A DNA stretch of 33,107 nt. Origin: a virus. Taxonomy: Duplodnaviria > Caudoviricetes. The DNA lies in the IMG/VR virus record IMGVR_UViG_3300020045_001432, positions 1 to 33,107 of that record. One strand, 5' to 3'. The position numbers were made by a program, and so were the translations under genes. Each line of letters begins with the position of its first letter. Position 1 is the stretch's first letter. A model generated the notes under the pieces. That model was given only the letters and a program-made list of their open reading frames with translations, made no database searches and was not told where the DNA came from. Of the stretch, positions 2,211 to 20,711 are shown piece by piece.

Positions 2211-2581
2211 GATTGCTCTCCTTTAGGTGGAGCTGGTTGGAAGTTGACACCGCTCGGAAGACTAGGTTTCTCTTCTTGAGTACCATTGTCGCCCCAACCA
2301 TGTTTAGATTTGAGATAGAACTGAATAGCAGCAAAGTGGTTCTTGTGCTTGCAGTCGCGTAAGACGTTCCACAAATAGCCAACAACCTCATCTTCGCCCA
2401 ATGCGTGGGCTTGACGGATTACTTCCTCTATTTCAGGATATTCTTTCTTCTTGGCACTGAATCCAGTAGGGCTAATGCCTACTATTCGTGCGATGCTTGC
2501 TTCGGTAACACCACGTGTCGCAAGCTCTTTGATTTGTTCTAGGATCTCTGGTGTAGGAACCCATTTCTTGCCATAAGCCAT
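2207..2581 (-). CDS. terS: Terminase small subunit (HTH type)
   Basis: HTH segment GVTEASIARIVGIS, then YPEIEEVI and AAIQFYLKSKHGW, typical of HTH TerS; upstream of terL. Confidence 0.8.
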   Translation of the reverse strand: MAYGKKWVPTPEILEQIKELATRGVTEASIARIVGISPTGFSAKKKEYPEIEEVIRQAHALGEDEVVGYLWNVLRDCKHKNHFAAIQFYLKSKHGWGDNGTQEEKPSLPSGVNFQPAPPKGEQS

Positions 2582-2582
2582 T

Positions 2583-3176
2583 TTACTTATTACCCCCGGT
2601 AATTGTTTTCTTGGATGTATTTATGGTTCTTTCCTTTAATTGGGCAGCTTCAATTATCTTAGGCAGAGTGCTGTTAGGACGTATGTCACCAACATGGCTG
2701 TATAATGCACCTTTGTACATAATTGGTCCCATCCAGGTTGGCTCTCCGTTACGTGGAGTGACCTTTATCTTTAGTTGGTATCCAAACATACGTGCCATTG
2801 CAACGTAGTCTTGTTTCAATACCAGTTCTGCAAATTCAGCAGATAGTGGATATCCTTCTGTGACGCATTCCTTTACCAGAGCGCGCATGCCTCTTGTTGC
2901 GTATGCAGGTGGCATGTTTTGAATGGACATGAAGAAGCGGAGGTCATTGATCCGCTTCTTGTCTTCATTAATGCGGGCAATTATGTCATCAGTTGGATCA
3001 ATTTCAGGAACGATAGATGTCATTGGTTGCTTTCCTTTGTTGCGGTATGCTTTCTTGCGCTCTGATTGCTCTTTAACCCACTCTGGATCTTGGCGTTTCT
3101 TTTCCAGCCATAAGAGTTGGTTCTTGCGACGATTGGCTTTGTACTCATCACTGTACGTCTTCTTTGGGTTGGTCAT
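2583..3176 (-). CDS. Hypothetical protein with basic helical N-terminus (probable start 3176; track start 3257)
   Basis: K/R-rich N-terminus MTNPKKTYSDEYKANRRKNQ followed by a globular region. Confidence 0.65.
   Translation of the reverse strand: MTNPKKTYSDEYKANRRKNQLLWLEKKRQDPEWVKEQSERKKAYRNKGKQPMTSIVPEIDPTDDIIARINEDKKRINDLRFFMSIQNMPPAYATRGMRALVKECVTEGYPLSAEFAELVLKQDYVAMARMFGYQLKIKVTPRNGEPTWMGPIMYKGALYSHVGDIRPNSTLPKIIEAAQLKERTINTSKKTITGGNK
2587..2603 (-). promoter_or_regulatory. 17-nt RBS hairpin ATTACCGGGGGTAATAA, copy 1
   Basis: Identical to 31022..31038; an ATTACC/GGTAAT stem covers the terS Shine-Dalgarno sequence. Confidence 0.65.
2618..2624 (-). promoter_or_regulatory. ATAAATA late-promoter-like motif upstream of terS
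   Basis: One of at least 13 minus-strand copies placed upstream of starts. Confidence 0.65.
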
Positions 3177-3450
3177 TTGGTGTTTGCAACTTATGTTGCT
3201 TCTTTCTCTGGATATGGTCTGCGTATATTTTGGACAGCTTGTCTTGATTGCGCTCACGCCATCTACGTTGATACTCGCGTTGGTAGGCTTTCCATTCTTC
3301 TAGATGGGCCTCTTTATAGCGCTTTACTGCTTCGCGGTTACGGATCTGCACTTCATCTTCTTCGTAGGTGTGTTCGTCTTCAGGTAGGTACTTGCGTGGA
3401 CGGCCTGGCTTTCTCTTTAATTTTGTTTCCATAATTTGCCCCATTGTCAT
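3148..3450 (-). CDS. AT-hook-containing basic helical protein
   Basis: KRKPGRPRKY AT-hook followed by YQREYQRRWRERN helical repeats. Confidence 0.7.
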   Translation of the reverse strand: MTMGQIMETKLKRKPGRPRKYLPEDEHTYEEDEVQIRNREAVKRYKEAHLEEWKAYQREYQRRWRERNQDKLSKIYADHIQRKKQHKLQTPNDQPKEDVQ

Positions 3451-3472
3451 TATGTATTATTTATGCTAAAGT
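3444..3472 (+). promoter_or_regulatory. Sigma70-like promoter for the plus-strand operon
   Basis: TTGTCA (3444-3449), 17-nt spacer, TAAAGT (3467-3472), with an extended -10 TG. Confidence 0.55.
3458..3464 (-). promoter_or_regulatory. ATAAATA late-promoter-like motif
   Basis: 7 nt before the ATG at 3450; overlaps the divergent sigma70-like promoter. Confidence 0.6.
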
Positions 3473-3512
3473 CCCCTCATCAGATGACAAATAGATTAAT
3501 CAGGTGAATTAG

Positions 3513-4046
3513 ATGAAACTTTTTATGAAGCAACTCCGCAGCACCCCTACAATGAAGATGCGCAATGCATTCTTTGGTGACCTCCATGGTCGCGATATTA
3601 TGAAGTGGGTGAACAAGTTCTATGGTTCTGGGATGGACATCATGCAAATTGGTGCTTCCATTAAGGCTGAACTTGGGGATGTTGCTGGGGATGTGATCTA
3701 CAAGATTGCATTCAGCCTTGATTGTCTGTTTACTGATATCAAGAAGATGGGCATTCAGCCTAAATCAAACAAGACCACTTATACCGTTGAAGAGATTGCT
3801 GCAAAGATCCTTGCATGCGATGATCAATTCTTTACTGTTACATTCATCAAGCGTACATCTGGTGAAGTCCGTACAATGAATTGCCGTCGTAATGTAGTCA
3901 AGCATTTGGCAGGCGGTGAGCTCAAGTACATCATGGCTGATAAAGGATTAATCAGCGTATGGGATCGGCAAGCAGATGGGTATCGTGCCATCAATATAGG
4001 TGGGATTGTTAGTGCCACTATTAATGGTACTACATACACAACTTAA
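3513..4046 (+). CDS. Protein with C-terminal WYL_2/SH3 beta-barrel-like domain
   Basis: FFTVTFIKRTSGEVRTMNCRRNV...LISVWDRQADGYRAIN resembles phage WYL_2 (DUF2693-like) proteins; the N-terminal ~90 aa are unrecognised. Confidence 0.65.
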   Translation: MKLFMKQLRSTPTMKMRNAFFGDLHGRDIMKWVNKFYGSGMDIMQIGASIKAELGDVAGDVIYKIAFSLDCLFTDIKKMGIQPKSNKTTYTVEEIAAKILACDDQFFTVTFIKRTSGEVRTMNCRRNVVKHLAGGELKYIMADKGLISVWDRQADGYRAINIGGIVSATINGTTYTT

Positions 4047-4059
4047 TGAGGAAATTCAA

Positions 4060-4254
4060 ATGAAGAAAATCGCAACCGCTCTGTTAATGCTAATTTCGTT
4101 TAGTGCCATAGCTGCCCAGGCGCAGCTGGTGTCATGTGATCTATCTACGTCCGTAACCGGTAGGTTCGTTTACGTAGGTACATACCAATATTATGGTCAA
4201 TATGTGCAAAGGACATTTCCCTCACATTGTCCACACATCATTGAGGTGTATTAA
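4060..4254 (+). CDS. Small secreted protein, 64 aa, with signal peptide
   Basis: GAGGAA RBS; Sec-type signal MKKIATALLMLISFSAIA; two Cys in the mature part. Confidence 0.75.
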   Translation: MKKIATALLMLISFSAIAAQAQLVSCDLSTSVTGRFVYVGTYQYYGQYVQRTFPSHCPHIIEVY

Positions 4255-4257
4255 CAG

Positions 4258-4374
4258 ATAAAGAAAGAGCCATGGAAACCTCACGTAAACATGGCTCTAT
4301 TATTCTCCGGTTGTTAATTGGACCTATTCCAATTAAGTCACCTACTATGGTTCAGACATCGCTACGTGAGCGAC
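4258..4374 (-). ncRNA. Candidate small RNA, about 115 nt
   Basis: Lies between a TTGCCT-N16-TATAAT promoter and a hairpin plus U-tract, with two further internal hairpins and no substantial ORF. Confidence 0.4.
4266..4298. terminator. Probably bidirectional terminator hairpin
   Basis: AGAGCCATG/CATGGCTCT 9-bp stem between convergent units; TTCTTT follows it on the minus strand. Confidence 0.6.
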
Positions 4375-4380
4375 ATTATC

Positions 4381-4408
4381 ATTATACGTCATTGCATTCA
4401 TAAGGCAA
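4381..4408 (-). promoter_or_regulatory. Sigma70-like promoter
   Basis: TTGCCT (4408-4403), 16-nt spacer, TATAAT (4386-4381). Confidence 0.5.
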
Positions 4409-4511
4409 CTGGGTGAAATACCAATCCCAGTATGCCATTTGCATTAATTGAGCTGACATCTAGTTCCTCTAATAAGTTGTGATTGAGGAACGAAGTGACG
4501 AACAACACAAC

Positions 4512-4838
4512 TTATTCCGCAGGCAGCTTTTGTACTTGAGCTAGCAATGCAATCAGCTGGTCAAGTCGCATTACTACCAATGGGTCTTTGTGGTTCTTCT
4601 TGAGAACTAGGTAATCAACTGGATCTAGGAAATCCCACATGTAATCCGCAATGGATTCTCGGTTCTTGCATTCAATGCGACCTAATGGGTGATCAACAGA
4701 ACCAATAACTACATCAGATGAGTACTTACCACCAAGGGAACCAGATAAAGGCACTCTTTCGGACGGTATTCCAGCATCTTCCAGTCGTTTAACGACCATA
4801 TTCTCAAGTCTTCTTCCTTTGTCTTTAGCAGCACTCAT
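4512..4838 (-). CDS. Holliday junction resolvase, Hjc-like PD-(D/E)XK nuclease
   Basis: KGRRLE...RVPLSGS...SDVVI...IECK motif order. Confidence 0.8.
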   Translation of the reverse strand: MSAAKDKGRRLENMVVKRLEDAGIPSERVPLSGSLGGKYSSDVVIGSVDHPLGRIECKNRESIADYMWDFLDPVDYLVLKKNHKDPLVVMRLDQLIALLAQVQKLPAE

Positions 4839-4866
4839 ATTGATCTCCGTTATTTGATATATGAGT

Positions 4867-4873
4867 TATTTAT
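4867..4873 (-). promoter_or_regulatory. ATAAATA late-promoter-like motif upstream of the resolvase
   Basis: About 28 nt before the ATG at 4838. Confidence 0.65.
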
Positions 4874-4879
4874 CATATC

Positions 4880-5310
4880 TCCTTGGCCGGGAGTTTAGGT
4901 TCTACTAGTAAGCAGTCATTCGCTTCGCGAGAGATGCATCGCGCCTGCGGCTGCTCAGCATCTCTGTCTTACTTAACACCTATCGGGAAGTAACTCAGCA
5001 TAACACTCAACACCGTTTCTAAACCAATCCCCCCACATACCACGGGTCAAGCGGTTATTACGGACTGTCGTAGTAGCGAATCATCATGGTCCGGCATTAT
5101 TTTACATCCCACACATGCTCCACTGGGCAACCACCATCTTTGGTTTCTGTACTGAGGTGGGTACCGTACAGACCTTTACCGGAGCGCGCCGGAACCTACA
5201 GCCCATTACTGGGGTAGCAGTCTTCTTGACAATCTATTCAAAATCCAGATCGTGTTTGGTGTGTAGAACCAATCTGGGGAATTTGCCAGGGGATTCAATA
5301 TCCCCACTAC
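4880..5310 (-). ncRNA. Large structured non-coding element (RNA and/or single-stranded DNA origin)
   Basis: Dense inverted repeats, a GTAA tetraloop, a G6 tract and GNA-triloop mini-hairpins; no convincing ORF. Confidence 0.5.
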
Positions 5311-5328
5311 ATTTACGAATTGTTTTTA

Positions 5329-5670
5329 TTACAAAGGACCGTATTTGTTAAAGTAACGATCTATCTGGTCTTCCAAGCGGTCGTTTAATGTATTCAACCG
5401 CTCATTTTCTTTCTTGAGTCTCTCAACATCATCACCAGATGGTGCTGGAAGAACAACTCTCTCTACAACTACCCGCTCAACTACTGATTCAACCACTGCT
5501 GTTCTCTTTGAAACATACACTGGACCGGGCATCTTTTGGTTCTTGCTATCTTTTGCGGCCTGTATTGCTTTTTCTTCTCTGCGCTTTTGTCTTACTTGGC
5601 GCTTCTTTGCTTTTTCAGTTAGTGGCTTATTACCAAGTGCTTCGGAAATCTGCTTTAACTTCTCGTTCAT
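5329..5670 (-). CDS. Basic protein with C-terminal coiled coil (start at 5670 or 5682)
   Basis: K/R-rich N-terminus and a heptad C-terminus VERLKKENERLNTLNDRLEDQI. Confidence 0.65.
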   Translation of the reverse strand: MNEKLKQISEALGNKPLTEKAKKRQVRQKRREEKAIQAAKDSKNQKMPGPVYVSKRTAVVESVVERVVVERVVLPAPSGDDVERLKKENERLNTLNDRLEDQIDRYFNKYGPL

Positions 5671-5723
5671 GTTGTTACCCAATTAAAATTAAAAACATTA
5701 GGGTTACCTAATTCCGTTCAGGC

Positions 5724-5835
5724 AAAAGGAAACTCCTCAAGTTTGGTCGGCCTACCGAAGGCGCACTTGAGGAGTTAATGTAAAAACGTTCAGTTGTACT
5801 TCGGTAGTTTTAGAGAGCTGCGACCAAACAGCTCT
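5724..5835 (-). promoter_or_regulatory. Two-hairpin leader/attenuator with loop complementarity
   Basis: 7-bp hairpin 5814-5835 and 12-bp hairpin 5731-5776 followed by TCCTTTT. 5821-5828 pairs with 5742-5749, and 5799-5807 pairs with 5752-5760. Confidence 0.7.
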
Positions 5836-5842
5836 GTGAATG

Positions 5843-5849
5843 TATTTAT
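5843..5849 (-). promoter_or_regulatory. ATAAATA late-promoter-like motif
   Basis: 7 nt upstream of the first leader hairpin. Confidence 0.65.
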
Positions 5850-5878
5850 GCAATGTTGCAAAAAGTTGACATAAAATG

Positions 5879-5907
5879 ATCATACGACTATTTACAAAAG
5901 ATGTCAA
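5879..5907 (-). promoter_or_regulatory. Near-consensus sigma70 promoter
   Basis: TTGACA (5907-5902), 17-nt spacer, TATGAT (5884-5879). Confidence 0.7.
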
Positions 5908-6221
5908 CTGCCTTGCGTTTCTTTTTCTGCTAACTTCTTTGCACGCCGTTCATTCGCGTATTCACGCATGCGAGCAAGACGTGCTGCATATGCCTCAGGA
6001 TCATTAGCTTTCATGTCTTCCCACTTTGCCTTATTGTAGACCTTCATACGGGCTTGGCATACTTCTTTGTTGGCTTCAAACGAGCGCTTGTTCATTGCAC
6101 GGTACTTCTCAATGTTGTCAAGACGACGCTGACGTTCACGTTCATTGAGGCGATCTCTATTTTCTTGTCTGTATTTGCGGCGGTATTCACGGTCGCGTTC
6201 TTTGCGTTCTTCTGGGGTCAT
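5904..6221 (-). CDS. Basic helical-repeat protein (probable start 6221, 105 aa)
   Basis: MTPEERKERDREYRRKYRQENRDRLNERERQRR; the ATG directly follows the upstream stop at 6223. Confidence 0.7.
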   Translation of the reverse strand: MTPEERKERDREYRRKYRQENRDRLNERERQRRLDNIEKYRAMNKRSFEANKEVCQARMKVYNKAKWEDMKANDPEAYAARLARMREYANERRAKKLAEKETQGS

Positions 6222-6222
6222 G

Positions 6223-6642
6223 TTAAAACTCAAATAGGCCTTCAAGGCGGTCAATATTGATTGTGGGGTGAAGTAGCTCTTCAGCATACTTGATTGTCTC
6301 GCGAATGTCTTGCTTATGTCGCGTAAAGAAGTCATACACCTTGCGGATCTGCTTCTCTGACAACTCCATGCATCCTGTCCAAACCCAGCGGTTGAACGAC
6401 TCTTTGCCTAAATGGTCAACTTCACCAGGCGCTTTGGTAGTCAGTATAATGTAGAAATGATCCACTTGTAGATCATCGTAGCAGTGCGGGTACTTCTTCT
6501 TGTCTGGGCTGAATTCGTGATCATCCGCCTTCCATGTGCGACCTACGTGTTCGTATTCAAAGATGCGCCATGTTTGTTTCTTGTTGGGGACATACCGGTC
6601 ATATATTTTGTTGACACGGAGGAAGAGGAGTTTGTGTTCCAT
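6223..6642 (-). CDS. Hypothetical protein, 139 aa
   Basis: GGAG RBS and TAATG coupling with the upstream gene. Confidence 0.75.
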   Translation of the reverse strand: MEHKLLFLRVNKIYDRYVPNKKQTWRIFEYEHVGRTWKADDHEFSPDKKKYPHCYDDLQVDHFYIILTTKAPGEVDHLGKESFNRWVWTGCMELSEKQIRKVYDFFTRHKQDIRETIKYAEELLHPTINIDRLEGLFEF

Positions 6643-6959
6643 TATTTTGCTCCCTTGCGGTCAAATACGTAAGAGAGTTTGGCTTCAACTGCTAATGAAA
6701 CCCATTTTTGTTCTTGGAGTTGATGAATGTTGGTGATCTTCCAACCTTCTCTAGGTCCGGCAATAAGTGCGGACTCTAGTGGCCAACCTGCTTTAACACG
6801 TTCACGGAGGGTGTGAACGGATACTTCAAAGATACGGGCAAGTTCGGCGATTGTTGTTGTGTATCCGTAGAATTCAAACCAAATGGCTGTTTCACGGGTA
6901 GGTAGCTTCGCACCAACGATTGAGCGTTCAGCTACGACTGGATTTGTTTTGTGTGTCAT
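6642..6959 (-). CDS. HTH DNA-binding protein
   Basis: FYGYTTTIAELARIFEVSVHTLRERVKAGWPLESAL resembles the HTH module at the C-terminus of phage HNH endonucleases; AGGAG RBS. Confidence 0.7.
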   Translation of the reverse strand: MTHKTNPVVAERSIVGAKLPTRETAIWFEFYGYTTTIAELARIFEVSVHTLRERVKAGWPLESALIAGPREGWKITNIHQLQEQKWVSLAVEAKLSYVFDRKGAK

Positions 6960-6988
6960 GTTGACTCCTTTTAATTTACCTGCAACGG

Positions 6989-6995
6989 TATTTAT
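6989..6995 (-). promoter_or_regulatory. ATAAATA late-promoter-like motif
   Basis: About 29 nt before the ATG at 6959. Confidence 0.65.
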
Positions 6996-7032
6996 GGGGA
7001 GTCAACATTTACATGCGATAAATTACAACTTC

Positions 7033-7047
7033 AGGGGAAGTTCCCCT
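7033..7047 (-). terminator. Hairpin at the end of the tail operon
   Basis: AGGGGA/TCCCCT inverted repeat just after the stop at 7050; no clear U-tract. Confidence 0.35.
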
Positions 7048-7049
7048 TG

Positions 7050-7292
7050 TTATGCGGCGTTTGACCAGATAACGGATGGAGTAATTTGTGTCAAACACAC
7101 CAACTTGCTTGTAGCAGTATTGAAATATGTTGAACCAAGTGGGGTGCCTGTCGTTGTGGCTGGGTTAGCAGCAAGACGACCCAAGAACTTTGGAGTAGCA
7201 TCCATTGTGGTGAAGTTTGTGTTGATCGTAACTTCTTTCTCTTTTTGACCAACTTCAAGCAGGGTCAATGCGTAGTTTGTGGTTGTTGCCAT
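7050..7292 (-). CDS. Short tail-associated protein with DUF2793-like N-terminus
   Basis: TTNYALTLLEVGQKEKEVTINTNFTTMD resembles the DUF2793 N-terminal motif. Confidence 0.6.
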   Translation of the reverse strand: MATTTNYALTLLEVGQKEKEVTINTNFTTMDATPKFLGRLAANPATTTGTPLGSTYFNTATSKLVCLTQITPSVIWSNAA

Positions 7293-7302
7293 TTAATTTC
7301 TC

Positions 7303-7716
7303 CTAAGGGTTCACGATTTCTATAGACACTGTATCTTTTTGATTCAATGCCTTGTTAATGATGTCAAACAATTTGCCAAATGCAATACGACTGTTGTAGA
7401 TGGATTGTCCATCAGAGCTAACAGTATCACCAGGAAGGATACAGCCTTCTGTATCACGTTGTGTATTTCCAGGATGGATTCTCACACCTTCAAAGTTCGG
7501 TACATTATTTAGAAGAGGAAGCAATCTACCAAATCGTGGCGATTGTGTCACCGTAACTTGGTAGACGCCTGCTGGTATTGCAGTGCTTCCATGAACTTTT
7601 GGTTCATTAATGCGAACTTGATCTTCCAATGTAAAGCAGATAAAGGTACTACCGTTGAACAATCGTCCAAGAGTAGTACCGTTTAGTGTTTGGTAGCGCT
7701 TCAGTGTTAGCTTCAT
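7303..7716 (-). CDS. DUF5675-family protein, candidate endolysin
   Basis: TLGRLF...CFTLED...TAIPAGVY...SPRFGR...VPNFEGVRIHPGN...DTEGCILPG. Confidence 0.8.
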   Translation of the reverse strand: MKLTLKRYQTLNGTTLGRLFNGSTFICFTLEDQVRINEPKVHGSTAIPAGVYQVTVTQSPRFGRLLPLLNNVPNFEGVRIHPGNTQRDTEGCILPGDTVSSDGQSIYNSRIAFGKLFDIINKALNQKDTVSIEIVNP

Positions 7717-10199
7717 GCTGTCACCACATATGGATAACCACCACCAGCTGATGTGGACATTTGAATCACAGAAGCCTTCAGTGTTGCCTGAGCTGATCCA
7801 AAGTCTGCCTGTTGTTGAGCAACCGTGTATGTGAATGAAGTACTCACAGTGGTTGCTGAACGAACTGCGACATCAGAACTGTTGATGATTGCAACAGCAT
7901 ATCCACCCCAATCGGTATCGTGACTGATTTCGGTGTAGTCACGAAGACCATTGTTGAATCGTGGGCGTTCTACCCATGTGATAGTCCAATCGCCATTGAC
8001 CTCTTTAACAGCCTTTGGTTGTGCTACACGCCATGGACGCATATTAAGACCATATGGTTGTACGTCATCAGATGTAGCTTTGGAGATATCACTACCAATG
8101 GTAACCGTCTTGTACTTGACCGTCTTGCCGATATCAGCAGATTCCAAAGCGATTGGTGTCAGTTGGTCATCTAGAATAACAAACAACTCGTTGGTAACAT
8201 GTGAACCACACTTTACTTCACTACCAGCACGACCACGAAGCAGACGTGACAGCGTGTAAGTGTTTGTGCCTGTCAGTGTTGCGTTGACGAAACCAATCAC
8301 TTCTTCACCAATCATGCACCAGTTTGTACCATTCTGAACAGCAATGTCTGTGCTGTTATTCAACACACCTTGCTTCAGTTGTACAGAAATCGTAGTCGTT
8401 GTATCCCACACGTGGTAGTCAGCAGGAGCATTCAATGCGGAAGCTGCGATACCAAAAGTAGGAGTCTTGTTGGATGTAGTCACATTGCTGTACGTAGCAC
8501 CACCGTCAACTGAACGATACAATGAAGCACCTGGCCAACCACTAGCACCATAACCATGAACAATTGCAAATATACGAGCAACTGACTCATTATCAGATAG
8601 AGGAGGAACTTCAATGAACAACGACTGTGAATAACCAATGGAAGACACAGTGTTGGTTGTCTGAGCTGGAGTTGGAGTTACTGTCACACCGGATGCAGCA
8701 TACGACGACGATGCAAAGTCAGCACGCACTACAGTGAATTCCAATAAGCCATCATCAGTCTCTCTCACCTGAAGGATACGGACGTTAGTAGTGCCGCCAG
8801 AATCAAGTGGAATAGCGATAATATCGCCTGGCTCTAGGTCAATGTTGTAGTAGTCAGTGATGAATGTGTATTGTTGCTGTTCAATATGTGAATTAACCAA
8901 CGATGATTCAGTGATACGCTTAGCTTCGTCATCAGAAAGCGTGAATGGAACTTCCAGCTTTACATCTTGACCAGCAGTGAATGTTTCCAACGTAGACACT
9001 TGTGTGAATATGTTGTGATCCAAAGCAGAAGAGTAGTAGTTCAATGTGACGCTACGTGGTAGGTCAATACCTTGAACACGCTTTGCTGTGTAAGCTGCGG
9101 ATCCAGTCATTGAGTTCTCAGCGCGTGTGTGGCCTAAGTCTTCAGACGTCAAAGTACGAACCACACTAAGAGTACGTGGAATGAACTTAACTGTTGATCC
9201 AGATTGGACGATATCAAACTGATACACTGTAGCCAAATTAGCCAACACATCACGAATTGGCATTGTGCTGCTGATTGTGAAATGAACTTCCTTCGTTGGT
9301 AGCTGAGTAACATCAAAATCCAATGCTGCATAACCAGCAAACGTCATTAGTGAAGCCACAACGTCAGGTAAACTTGGGGCAGTAAAGGTTCCATTATAGC
9401 CAGCAGTGCCGGTGTAACGAGAGTCAGCCTGGCCATCACCCGTTCCGTCTTCGGACATCATATCAGAAATCTTCACACCAGCGTAGATCAGGCCAGCACC
9501 AAGTGCTAATGCCTGTAACCAATCACCAACTGTAGCTGTATCAATCCAGTCAAACACCGAATCCTTCAATGCAGTTAGGAAGTCTTTTTCAGCTGGAGGC
9601 ATTGCGGCAACGGTAACATCAGTCATCGCGTCCCAGTTAACAGCCCAGAATGAGCCAAATCCAGGCTCATCACCACCTGATGAAGTGTGATCTGCAGAAC
9701 ATACGTAAGCATTACCAGTTGCCTGATTGCGTACGACGTCATTCTTTTTGTAGTCAAATGAATCTGACCAATCTCCACGCCAACGCAGGCGATCGGATTC
9801 TCCAAACTTCTCCCAGTTTGTTTCCCAATCAAGACCAGTACCTGGCTCGTTACCTGTATCGGAAGTGTGTGTGGCAATACAGATATACACAATACCATCA
9901 TGGGACACCAAAGATGTACTACATGGGGTGCCACCTTCTTTGTAGTAATTGGTAGTTGCTGCCCATGCATTCTCCCATTTGAGGCCGCAACCAGCCTCAC
10001 CAGAAGGACCAGCTGGTCCTTGGGGTCCTTGAGATGGGCAGCAAACAGTTTGAGTAACAACTTGGCCTGGCTTTGTAACAACAGCAGATGACCCGCCTGA
10101 ACAGAACTCAAACTTTGCATCAGGAGATGATGCTGTCACCGATCCTGGATTAGAGTTGTCTGTTTTACGAGCACGTTTTGGAACTGGACAAATACTCAT
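7713..10199 (-). CDS. Tail tip/host-specificity protein (C-terminal part of a GTA-megatron/gpJ-like protein) with N-terminal CBM-like repeats
   Basis: YQFDIVQSGSTVKFIPR, DLPRSVTLNY, LEPGD, GEEVIGFVNATL and LSRLLRGRAGSE motifs; two Trp/Tyr repeats ending YxC..xHTS near the N-terminus. Confidence 0.85.
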   Translation of the reverse strand: MSICPVPKRARKTDNSNPGSVTASSPDAKFEFCSGGSSAVVTKPGQVVTQTVCCPSQGPQGPAGPSGEAGCGLKWENAWAATTNYYKEGGTPCSTSLVSHDGIVYICIATHTSDTGNEPGTGLDWETNWEKFGESDRLRWRGDWSDSFDYKKNDVVRNQATGNAYVCSADHTSSGGDEPGFGSFWAVNWDAMTDVTVAAMPPAEKDFLTALKDSVFDWIDTATVGDWLQALALGAGLIYAGVKISDMMSEDGTGDGQADSRYTGTAGYNGTFTAPSLPDVVASLMTFAGYAALDFDVTQLPTKEVHFTISSTMPIRDVLANLATVYQFDIVQSGSTVKFIPRTLSVVRTLTSEDLGHTRAENSMTGSAAYTAKRVQGIDLPRSVTLNYYSSALDHNIFTQVSTLETFTAGQDVKLEVPFTLSDDEAKRITESSLVNSHIEQQQYTFITDYYNIDLEPGDIIAIPLDSGGTTNVRILQVRETDDGLLEFTVVRADFASSSYAASGVTVTPTPAQTTNTVSSIGYSQSLFIEVPPLSDNESVARIFAIVHGYGASGWPGASLYRSVDGGATYSNVTTSNKTPTFGIAASALNAPADYHVWDTTTTISVQLKQGVLNNSTDIAVQNGTNWCMIGEEVIGFVNATLTGTNTYTLSRLLRGRAGSEVKCGSHVTNELFVILDDQLTPIALESADIGKTVKYKTVTIGSDISKATSDDVQPYGLNMRPWRVAQPKAVKEVNGDWTITWVERPRFNNGLRDYTEISHDTDWGGYAVAIINSSDVAVRSATTVSTSFTYTVAQQQADFGSAQATLKASVIQMSTSAGGGYPYVVTA

Positions 10200-20020: not shown

Positions 20021-20289
20021 TTTATCTCTCTTCGTAGGTCACGTGTTTGCTTTTGATAATCTTTTTGGTCAGCATGAAAAGCAAAACGCAACTGATCCAT
20101 TGATAGCAACTGATCAATGGATGTGCGTTTTGAGATAGCAGGGACGAATAGGTTGATTTGGTCAAGGGACATATCGTAAATCTCAGCCATACTAAAGTTG
20201 GCCTTCTTTAACGATATTACGACGTCTGTCCAGCTTGAATCGCTTCCATCTTGCTGTTGAGTGTCGGAAGCACCTTTTGGACGAAAAAA
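20017..20289 (-). CDS. Tail assembly chaperone extension (gpT-like) reached by -1 frameshift
   Basis: The -1 frame is open from the slippery site TTTTTTC (20289-20283) to TGA at 20017, which overlaps the tape measure ATG. Confidence 0.75.
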   Translation of the reverse strand, partial: FFRPKGASDTQQQDGSDSSWTDVVISLKKANFSMAEIYDMSLDQINLFVPAISKRTSIDQLLSMDQLRFAFHADQKDYQKQTRDLRREIK

Positions 20290-20606: not shown

Positions 20607-20642
20607 TTAATTTAGCTCCTGTATTTGCTGCTGTTTAATTTG

Positions 20643-20711
20643 TGGACCATAAGGGAATCGGACCCTTCGGAGATTGCATGCAAAGCATTCTTGTACCCCA
20701 GTACATAGCCC
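20643..20711 (-). tRNA. Non-canonical tRNA-Ala(TGC)-like gene, 69 nt
   Basis: Acceptor stem GGGCTAT/ATGGTCC with G3:U70 and A73; anticodon loop TT-TGC-AT; T-arm AAGGG-TCCGATT-CCCTT; mini D-arm GTAC-TGGG-GTAC. Confidence 0.7.

Follow-up and report, generated by a model that had tools for sequence, protein, structure and literature searches.

A phage leader RNA with two pairings to the loop of its own terminator-like hairpin, shared by an uncultured phage clade and mobile endonuclease cassettes, may act as a transcription attenuator

The window analyzed here, the whole stretch of 33,107 nucleotides, is a complete phage genome of 33,107 bases with direct terminal repeats (completeness 100). The phage is siphovirus-like and encodes terminase, portal, scaffold, major capsid, tail, and tape-measure proteins from genes that lie almost entirely on the minus strand. 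Among 51 open reading frames (ORFs) compared with PHROGs, 28 of them also with Pfam, no integrase, repressor, antirepressor, primase, helicase, polymerase, or sigma factor was found, in a scan that small divergent genes could escape. Matches to “DNA polymerase” PHROGs came from collagen repeats of tail fibers and not from a polymerase, and a Pfam DnaT_2 match fell in a gene that PHROGs assigns to a head-tail adaptor. GC skew gave no origin signal. A tRNA-Ala(TGC) gene lies between the major tail and tail chaperone genes (20642-20711, minus strand), with an ATAAATA motif closely upstream. Between convergent genes, the stretch 4255-4510 contains several strong hairpins (local z scores of -5.4 at 4401-4520 and -4.2 at 4201-4320); no promoter-like site that could serve the two plus-strand ORFs further left was identified on the plus strand of this stretch.

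On the minus strand, a leader of roughly 110 bases ends in a predicted transcription-stop hairpin, the loop of which is complementary to two boxes at the leader start. Behind it come a 113-aa ORF, a noncoding block, and a gene for a Holliday-junction resolvase-like protein (Table 1).

Table 1. Coordinates of the leader, its promoter-like motifs, and the features behind it, numbered along the window
Feature	Coordinates	Strand	Description
Sigma-70-type promoter	5879..5907	-	-35 box 5907-5902, 17-nt spacer, -10 box 5884-5879; predicted start near 5872
Inverted repeat, 9 bp	5864..5909	.	Arms 5909-5901 and 5872-5864; spans the -35 box and the predicted start
ATAAATA heptamer at the leader	5843..5849	-	Recurrent promoter-like motif; ends 14 nt upstream of box A
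All ATAAATA positions	32545, 31110, 29368, 23272, 22084, 21618, 20737, 16195, 6995, 5849, 4873, 3464, 2624	-
Hairpin P1	5814..5835	-	7-bp stem 5835-5829/5820-5814; 8-nt loop is box A (5828-5821)
A-run and box B	5799..5811	-	A-run 5811-5808, then box B 5807-5799
Terminator-like stem P2a	5731..5776	-	Arms 5776-5765/5742-5731; perfect 12 bp
Inner stem P2b	5762-5760/5752-5750	-	Within the 22-nt loop of P2a
B'	5760-5752	-	Complement of box B
A'	5749-5742	-	Complement of box A
T-rich tail	5724..5732	-	TTTCCTTTT; overlaps the stem base
113-aa ORF	5329..5670	-	First gene behind the leader; basic N-terminal half, coiled-coil-like C terminus
Noncoding block	4839..5328	-	~490 nt; last ~150 nt common to L050 and L051
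Holliday-junction resolvase-like gene	4512..4838	-	phrog_244, E 3.9e-14; PF24608

A motif-free homolog search, made with an alignment of 28 resolvase relatives, returned 24 viral and 3 metagenome loci. Three of these 27 loci (L050, L051, and L026) are syntenic with the window, and all three carry the leader. L050 and L051 share 82 to 92% nucleotide identity with the window in the shared stretches, and L026 is distant. The resolvase-like gene is syntenic in all of these window-clade relatives and is preceded by the noncoding block in every clade member; the 5' part of the block in the window differs from that in L050 and L051, and L050 (3600-4000) and L026 (3490-4000) share several short motifs there. 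The initial annotation had described 4850-5335 as a structured block, a description that folding did not bear out (z score of -1.2, with 11 of 100 shuffles as good; local z scores of at least -1.8 across 5320-4841). The block had no Rfam match and, by BLAST, no plasmid match. It is a candidate origin or a candidate second RNA; that it holds an RNA-primed replication origin is a guess, beside which stand the lack of a GC-skew signal and of a plasmid match.

The first ORF behind the leader varies within the clade (113 aa in the window, 106 aa in L050 and L051, and 53 aa in L026) and is basic in every member. The 113-aa product has one relative cluster, at 55% identity, with no Pfam or informative PHROG match and no Atlas match at ≥0.9. 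Its N-terminal half carries an arginine/lysine-rich stretch, a run that we take to be reminiscent of the RNA-binding peptides of phage antiterminators. Five tRNA genes (2281-3044) lie just upstream of the leader promoter in L026; tRNA genes are absent from the L050 and L051 loci.

The sigma-70-type promoter before the leader agrees with the consensus at 11 of 12 positions, the best among 11 sites in 3200-7800, and is identical in L050 and L051, where the 9-bp inverted repeat, a possible operator, is also conserved. The coding strand contains 13 copies of the ATAAATA heptamer and the opposite strand none, where base composition predicts about 4.5 and 3.3 copies, respectively. Its copies lie mostly shortly upstream of gene starts and recur at matching places in L050 and L026. 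The heptamer resembles the T4 late promoter TATAAATA, as that is given in PMC3121705. Possibly it is a promoter that depends on a helper or on a phage activator, with no sigma factor gene found among the 51 ORFs scanned. From the copy in front of the leader, transcription would begin at the foot of P1. Because the sigma-70-type -10 box ends 50 nt and the heptamer 14 nt upstream of box A, the window may produce two leader forms, one long and one short.

Within the leader, boxes A and B are exactly complementary to A' and B', the latter over 9 bp, and the perfect 12-bp stem encloses a 22-nt loop and is followed by TCCTTTT; the initial annotation had each of these elements right, to the base. It had also placed both targets essentially in the terminator loop, which holds for B' and A' as members of the loop region, with the amendment that the base with which the 3' arm of the stem begins also belongs to A'. 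The A:A' pairing can be extended to 9 bp (5829-5821/5749-5741). Since a short inner stem sits in the 22-nt loop, B' becomes an apical loop and A' a 3' bulge. The two pairings are mutually nested (in the order A, B, B', A'), and each crosses the terminator stem. A spacer of 22 nt separates B from the stem. Taken at 161 nt, the window leader has a folding z score of -3.4, and it likely folds with both long-range matches in place. A simple terminator scan misses the stem because such a scan admits loops of 3 to 8 nt only, against the 22-nt loop found here.

How easily such double complementarity arises was gauged in several ways. With the 23-nt loop fixed and the upstream 96 nt dinucleotide-shuffled, two nonoverlapping matches of at least 8 nt appeared in 0 of 20,000 shuffles, and a single 9-nt match appeared in 3 of 20,000. 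When the test was slid along both genome strands, 3 of 21,984 positions passed, two of them the leader element and one in coding DNA near 20102. The homolog evidence weighs more than the shuffle test, because the tested regions were chosen after the fact. A sequence-free descriptor recovers all 11 known copies of the element (see below) and in the window finds the leader only. It gave no match in 612 kb of control sequence (338 kb of distant resolvase loci and 274 kb of unrelated loci) or in five shuffled genomes, and one weak, dissimilar match (L285) among eight HNH loci that lack the element.

We found 11 distinct leader copies, all in phages: four in the window clade and seven of what is here referred to as the endonuclease type, which are carried by Kagunavirus, Jerseyvirus, a Citrobacter phage, and one unclassified contig. 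A pattern built from A, A', and the stem end matched 15 viral loci, the true copies being L053 (the L026 contig), L054/L060, L056, and L066. BLAST with L054 added 10 GenBank records, namely, seven of Kagunavirus type (Schulenburg, K1ind3, and relatives), two of Salmonella phage pink, and one of Citrobacter phage K1M. A structure filter applied to 238 pattern matches gave a bimodal distribution in which 27 rows, representing the 11 distinct elements, scored at least 14 and the other 211 scored at most 11. In GTDB (51 of 64 parts), none of 120 pattern loci passed this filter (best score 11, versus at least 14 for members). Exact-motif scans of viral contigs with B'/A' of the window (13 loci) or with its stem arms (11 loci) returned unrelated matches only, and BLAST found no match to 4840-5930 or to the L056 leader in GenBank phages and none to the L071 leader in E. 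coli genomes. Whole-record searches located one copy each in 4 of 5 records and none in Kagunavirus XY1. Conservation of A and A' is partly built into this set, because three of the scans demanded their sequence; the copies found without that requirement are L050, L051, and L026 only.

All 11 copies sit 5' of an ORF, those of the endonuclease type within about 20 nt of the start codon. A phrog_953-type HNH gene lies directly behind six of the seven nonclade copies (E values of 3e-30 to 6e-77 for the three scanned; the others were assigned by annotation or translation), and a T5orf172-domain gene, inserted against the tail operon, lies behind the remaining one. The flanks of the K1ind3 site match 488 phage records, 7 of which cover at least 80% of the query (1,411 nt); among the 40 listed of these 488, most span about 540 to 720 nt. 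In phage K1G the flanking genes abut, and neither the leader nor the HNH gene was found at this empty site; leader and nuclease thus entered the K1ind3 site together. The element was found in none of eight other loci with related HNH genes, one of which has an int-alpA RNA in its place. The idea that the 113-aa ORF of the window is an endonuclease remnant was rejected, the best tblastn E value of five cassette proteins on the window being 0.33. Two side observations concern these cassettes. In Salmonella phage pink (L070), an intact HNH frame lies behind the leader at 1626-2194, and the record annotates its last 228 bases only, as a hypothetical protein. In Raoultella phage RP180 (L300, about 390-1106), the K1ind3 cassette site instead holds a head-morphogenesis protein with an extra domain that appears ADP-ribosyltransferase-like by eye.

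The consensus order of the element is P1 with loop A, the A-run, B, a linker, P2a, P2b, B' as the apical loop, A' as the 3' bulge, the 3' arm of P2a with its GGRG end, and the T tail. P1, the terminator-like stem, A:A', the A-run after P1, and a T-rich tail are retained in all 11 copies, and C's interrupt the T tract in the window clade. Between B and the stem, the linker measures 21 to 24 nt in the window clade and 5 to 11 nt in the endonuclease-type copies. In four of the latter (L054, L056, L070, and L071), a -10 box detected at the scan threshold ends 16 nt before A, and in the other three (L066, L068, and L069) a weaker 7-of-12 box was read by eye at equal spacing; given this distance of 16 nt, their transcripts would start at the foot of P1.

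Compensatory changes in homologs had been set as the test of the proposed pairings, and they are seen in both pairings and in the terminator stem. For A:A', a U-A to C-G double change occurs in L026 and L056, and the P1 loop and A' are unchanged in L050 and L051. For B:B', the window clade holds four different, fully matched sequences (9 bp in the window and 7 bp each in L050, L051, and L026), with the cognate partner the best in each. Outside the clade this pairing is shorter, at 3 to 6 bp (about 4 bp in L068, L070, and L056 and about 3 bp in L054), and in L054 noncognate loops beat its own B' (-10.9 versus -3.9 kcal/mol). Cognate B:B' duplex energies compared with permuted ones give a P value of 7e-5 (7 of 100,000 permutations) over 11 related sequences, a signal driven by the window clade. 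Both B:B' and the inner stem were counted by script, because MAFFT misregisters them between clades; where the longest helix found by the script ran into the inner stem (L068, L070, and L054), the pairing confined to the loop was determined by eye. Among the matches listed are further relatives that vary at and near B and B'; these were excluded from the covariation counts.

The stems covary as well. In the window clade, 6 of 12 terminator-stem pairs changed on both sides with 100% of cells paired, and among homologs 4 of the 7 P1 pairs show changes on both sides. An alignment of the four window-clade sequences (A7) has 96% of cells paired and 9 of 26 pairs double-changed. In the alignment of the seven endonuclease-type copies (A3), 95% of cells are paired and 10 of 34 pairs are double-changed, compared with 22 to 46% for slid controls; no shuffle of 500 scored as high, a count that is not a probability because the sequences are related. 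One G-U pair in P1 is invariant in all seven. A covariance model built from the endonuclease-type copies scores the window clade at 24 to 27 bits (E 2e-4 to 9e-4), with antisense hairpin matches reaching 23.7 bits, and the probable homology of the two groups is argued from their shared A/A' sequence, order, and spacing. The leader is a real, covariation-supported, and uncatalogued phage RNA, the function of which we infer.

Our preferred reading, held with moderate confidence, is that the leader is a cis-acting attenuator in which a clamp formed by the two pairings is the read-through state. A kissing-loop or pseudoknot attenuator had been proposed at the outset and remains the best reading, in view of a conserved leader between promoter and ORF and of the compensatory changes; the suggested membership in the C4/CI immunity RNAs did not survive. 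In the nascent RNA, both pairings, B:B' and that of the P1 loop A with A', would form ahead of synthesis of the terminator 3' arm. This A/B clamp would hinder the zipping of the 12- to 13-bp stem, and RNA polymerase would read through; failure of the clamp would let the terminator form and release an RNA of about 105 to 150 nt. The leader would in this way dose whatever follows it: a mobile endonuclease in the seven endonuclease-type copies and, in the window, the small basic protein together with the block and the resolvase. The complementarities, their covariation, the restriction to phages in the searches made, and the joint insertion with the HNH gene at one site are observations; pairing at the RNA level, termination at the T tail, read-through by the clamped form, and whatever tips the balance are putative components.

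Folding with ViennaRNA, which excludes pseudoknots, agrees with a contest of this kind. For a nascent RNA that ends at A', A:A' is part of the best fold in 8 of 11 copies; the remaining three (the window, L050, and L051) instead form P1 and B:B', about 3.5 kcal/mol below their nested A:A' form. In the complete leader, the fold of P1 plus terminator is the most stable in all 11, by 2.3 to 16.6 kcal/mol. The shift from nascent folds with A:A' or B:B' to a full-length fold with the terminator suggests kinetic competition. Geometrically, the pairings would close loops around the 5' arm of the terminator, around which the polymerase-bound 3' arm must wind more than one helical turn. The linker of 5 to 11 nt in the endonuclease-type copies would leave little slack for a helix of about 18 bp and looks strained; the steric argument is weak for the window copy, because a linker of 21 to 24 nt lets all helices coexist. 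Both parts of the proposal have precedents: in the guanidine-IV riboswitch, a kissing loop hinders terminator completion and competes with the lengthening P2 stem (PMC11611296, PMC10907184), and in T-even phages, 5' terminators and RNA hairpins restrain the expression of homing endonucleases (PMC2988022).

The attenuator would need an input, for which released RNA acting in trans is the most economical, if tentative, candidate. In this possible though unlikely alternative to a purely cis-acting device, the terminated RNA, with its A' and B', would capture A and B of new transcripts, block the cis clamp, and bring about termination, a self-repressing feedback in which B is an immunity or incompatibility code. 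Each of the four window-clade phages has its own B/B'. Between L050 and L051, 4 of 14 B/B' positions are changed, each time with compensation, compared with 63 of 3,283 columns overall; these four changes lie in a 52-nt patch with 9 differences, however, and may be a single recombined tract. The position of the element before unrelated ORFs fits an RNA-only trigger, and P4 CI RNA induces termination when it base-pairs to sites in the nascent RNA (PMC4825925). Against feedback, B:B' is nearly identical in four Guernseyvirinae copies and weak in others, and cis pairing usually outruns trans pairing. More doubtfully still, the element would be a portable, protein-free negative-feedback device with B as its exchangeable address, which would allow one pulse of nuclease in homing cassettes, gate the early block of the window clade and possibly an origin, and make B a superinfection or incompatibility code.

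It is rather improbable, a little below the feedback proposals, that the helices coexist in a single stable fold, a double pseudoknot that assists a large-loop terminator or protects a short RNA, with fixed leak-through or an RNA task of its own. All helices are conserved together, and the full-length best fold always includes the terminator. In most copies the inner stem and B:B' together come to about 8 to 11 bp; the A-run that follows P1 does not vary, and P1 of the endonuclease-type copies has a 3-by-3 purine-rich internal loop, features that would suit tertiary packing. Against this reading, fixed leak-through could be had from a simple short-loop terminator with no need for a pair of conserved long-range pairings, the terminator arm is overlapped by A', and each copy directly precedes an ORF.

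We regard sensing as quite unlikely, that is, a small molecule, the basic ORF product, or the 3' end of an uncharged tRNA shifting A:A'. A:A' is conserved in sequence while the other helices covary, and loop A has complementarity to a tRNA-type NCCA end, a sequence mimicked by A'; NCCA pairing is the logic of the T-box. The arginine/lysine-rich stretch of the window ORF and the tRNA genes just upstream in L026 point the same way. Few conserved unpaired bases exist beyond A/A' and the A-run, however, and the L050 and L051 loci are without tRNA. No protein is common to all copies (HNH, T5orf172-type, and unrelated basic ORFs), and there is no Rfam riboswitch or T-box match, riboswitch models giving none at E ≤ 10 in 4200-5920 and none at E ≤ 2 in six homolog loci. 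A DNA-level structure (a single-strand origin or recombination signal) or a by-product of inverted duplication, which the lack of a recognizable replication gene among the 51 ORFs and the nearness of the noncoding block and resolvase might suggest, is highly improbable given the promoter directly 5', the T tail and ORF directly 3', the constant strand, the invariant P1 G-U pair of the endonuclease-type copies, the occurrence in endonuclease cassettes within structural-gene operons, and the repeated compensatory change.

The leader thus represents a covariation-supported phage RNA family absent from Rfam, and our search of the literature, in which few subscription journals were covered, found no description of it. 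It connects mobile endonuclease cassettes in cultured E. coli, Salmonella, and Citrobacter phages with an uncultured phage clade that has it in its early region. Terminators directly obstructed by a pseudoknot formed on their own loop are described as rare, with guanidine-IV as the example (PMC10907184), and a ligand-free version with two pairings would, if true, mean that selfish nuclease genes carry their own dosing device. The copies in the E. coli phages K1ind3 and Schulenburg are amenable to assays with E. coli RNA polymerase, and the exchangeable B:B' pairs could become orthogonal parts for synthetic attenuators.

Among known systems, P1 C4 and P4 CI were the family first proposed for the leader, and an Rfam search that included C4 (RF01695) gave no C4 or CI match at E ≤ 10 in the genome. 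More broadly, Rfam had no match at gathering level in the window and three chance-level matches at E ≤ 10 in 4200-5920. The leader resembles these RNAs in its short bipartite pairings with a downstream structured element, in the control of premature termination, and in pairing sequences that vary between phages (PMC4825925, PMC2864571; the latter lists C4 and c4-a1b1 as motifs). It differs in that its partner boxes lie in the terminator hairpin itself with no second downstream target: B and B' each occur once in the genome, there is no further A/A' within 1.5 kb in the window, and stray single A or A' copies in 3 of 11 loci are all upstream, at unrelated positions. Nor were antirepressor, repressor, integrase, or replication genes found among the 51 ORFs of the window. 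Antisense control of the plasmid type does not fit, since there is no conserved antisense promoter across the element; scattered weak sites (8 or 9 of 12) occur at differing positions, with none in 3 of 11 copies.

With int-alpA RNA (RF02996), the endonuclease-type P1 shares, by eye, a short CUAG...GAA frame around a small hairpin, whereas int-alpA RNA is a three-way-junction fold without terminator-loop pairings; its model gave no match at E ≤ 10 in the window and none in the six endonuclease-type loci scanned. An int-alpA RNA is present in Shewanella phage X14 (L289, 360-429; 45 bits, above the gathering score) before an HNH gene and inside the 5' end of an annotated coding sequence, and a similar-looking set of hairpins in Vibrio phage 34E29.1 (L287, about 400-470) has no Rfam match at E ≤ 2. 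T-boxes combine a Stem I with a specifier loop and a downstream antiterminator bulge. A T-box was rejected for lack of an Rfam match and because the loop complementary to the tRNA 3' end lies at the 5' end of the leader and not in an antiterminator, and the helix orders of Pistol, HDV-like, and hammerhead ribozymes do not fit. Other motifs with 3' terminators appear in PMC5737381.

Intrinsic terminators are matched more closely, by stems of 12 to 14 bp ending in GGRG and followed by 3 to 5 T's and further pyrimidines in all 11 copies. Like the 5' RNA elements of T-even mobE, segF, I-TevI, and segB, which limit expression of mobile endonucleases (PMC2988022), the leader stands before such genes in the cassettes. 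The T-even elements are single hairpins or terminators, whereas here a portable promoter and double-pairing leader move with the gene, and in the window the leader fronts nonendonuclease genes. The nearest layout is that of guanidine-IV, a two-hairpin leader of about 100 nt whose 5' loop pairs with the terminator loop region and competes with terminator completion (PMC11611296, PMC10907184). The corresponding pairing of 5' loop and terminator loop, A:A', is present in all 11 copies, with a compensatory change in two. The leader differs from guanidine-IV in having two pairings and not one, in lacking an Rfam match, in having no known ligand, and in standing before HNH, T5orf172-type, or other ORFs and not guanidine exporters. 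The leader is most likely a terminator-obstructing attenuator of guanidine-IV layout without a known ligand.
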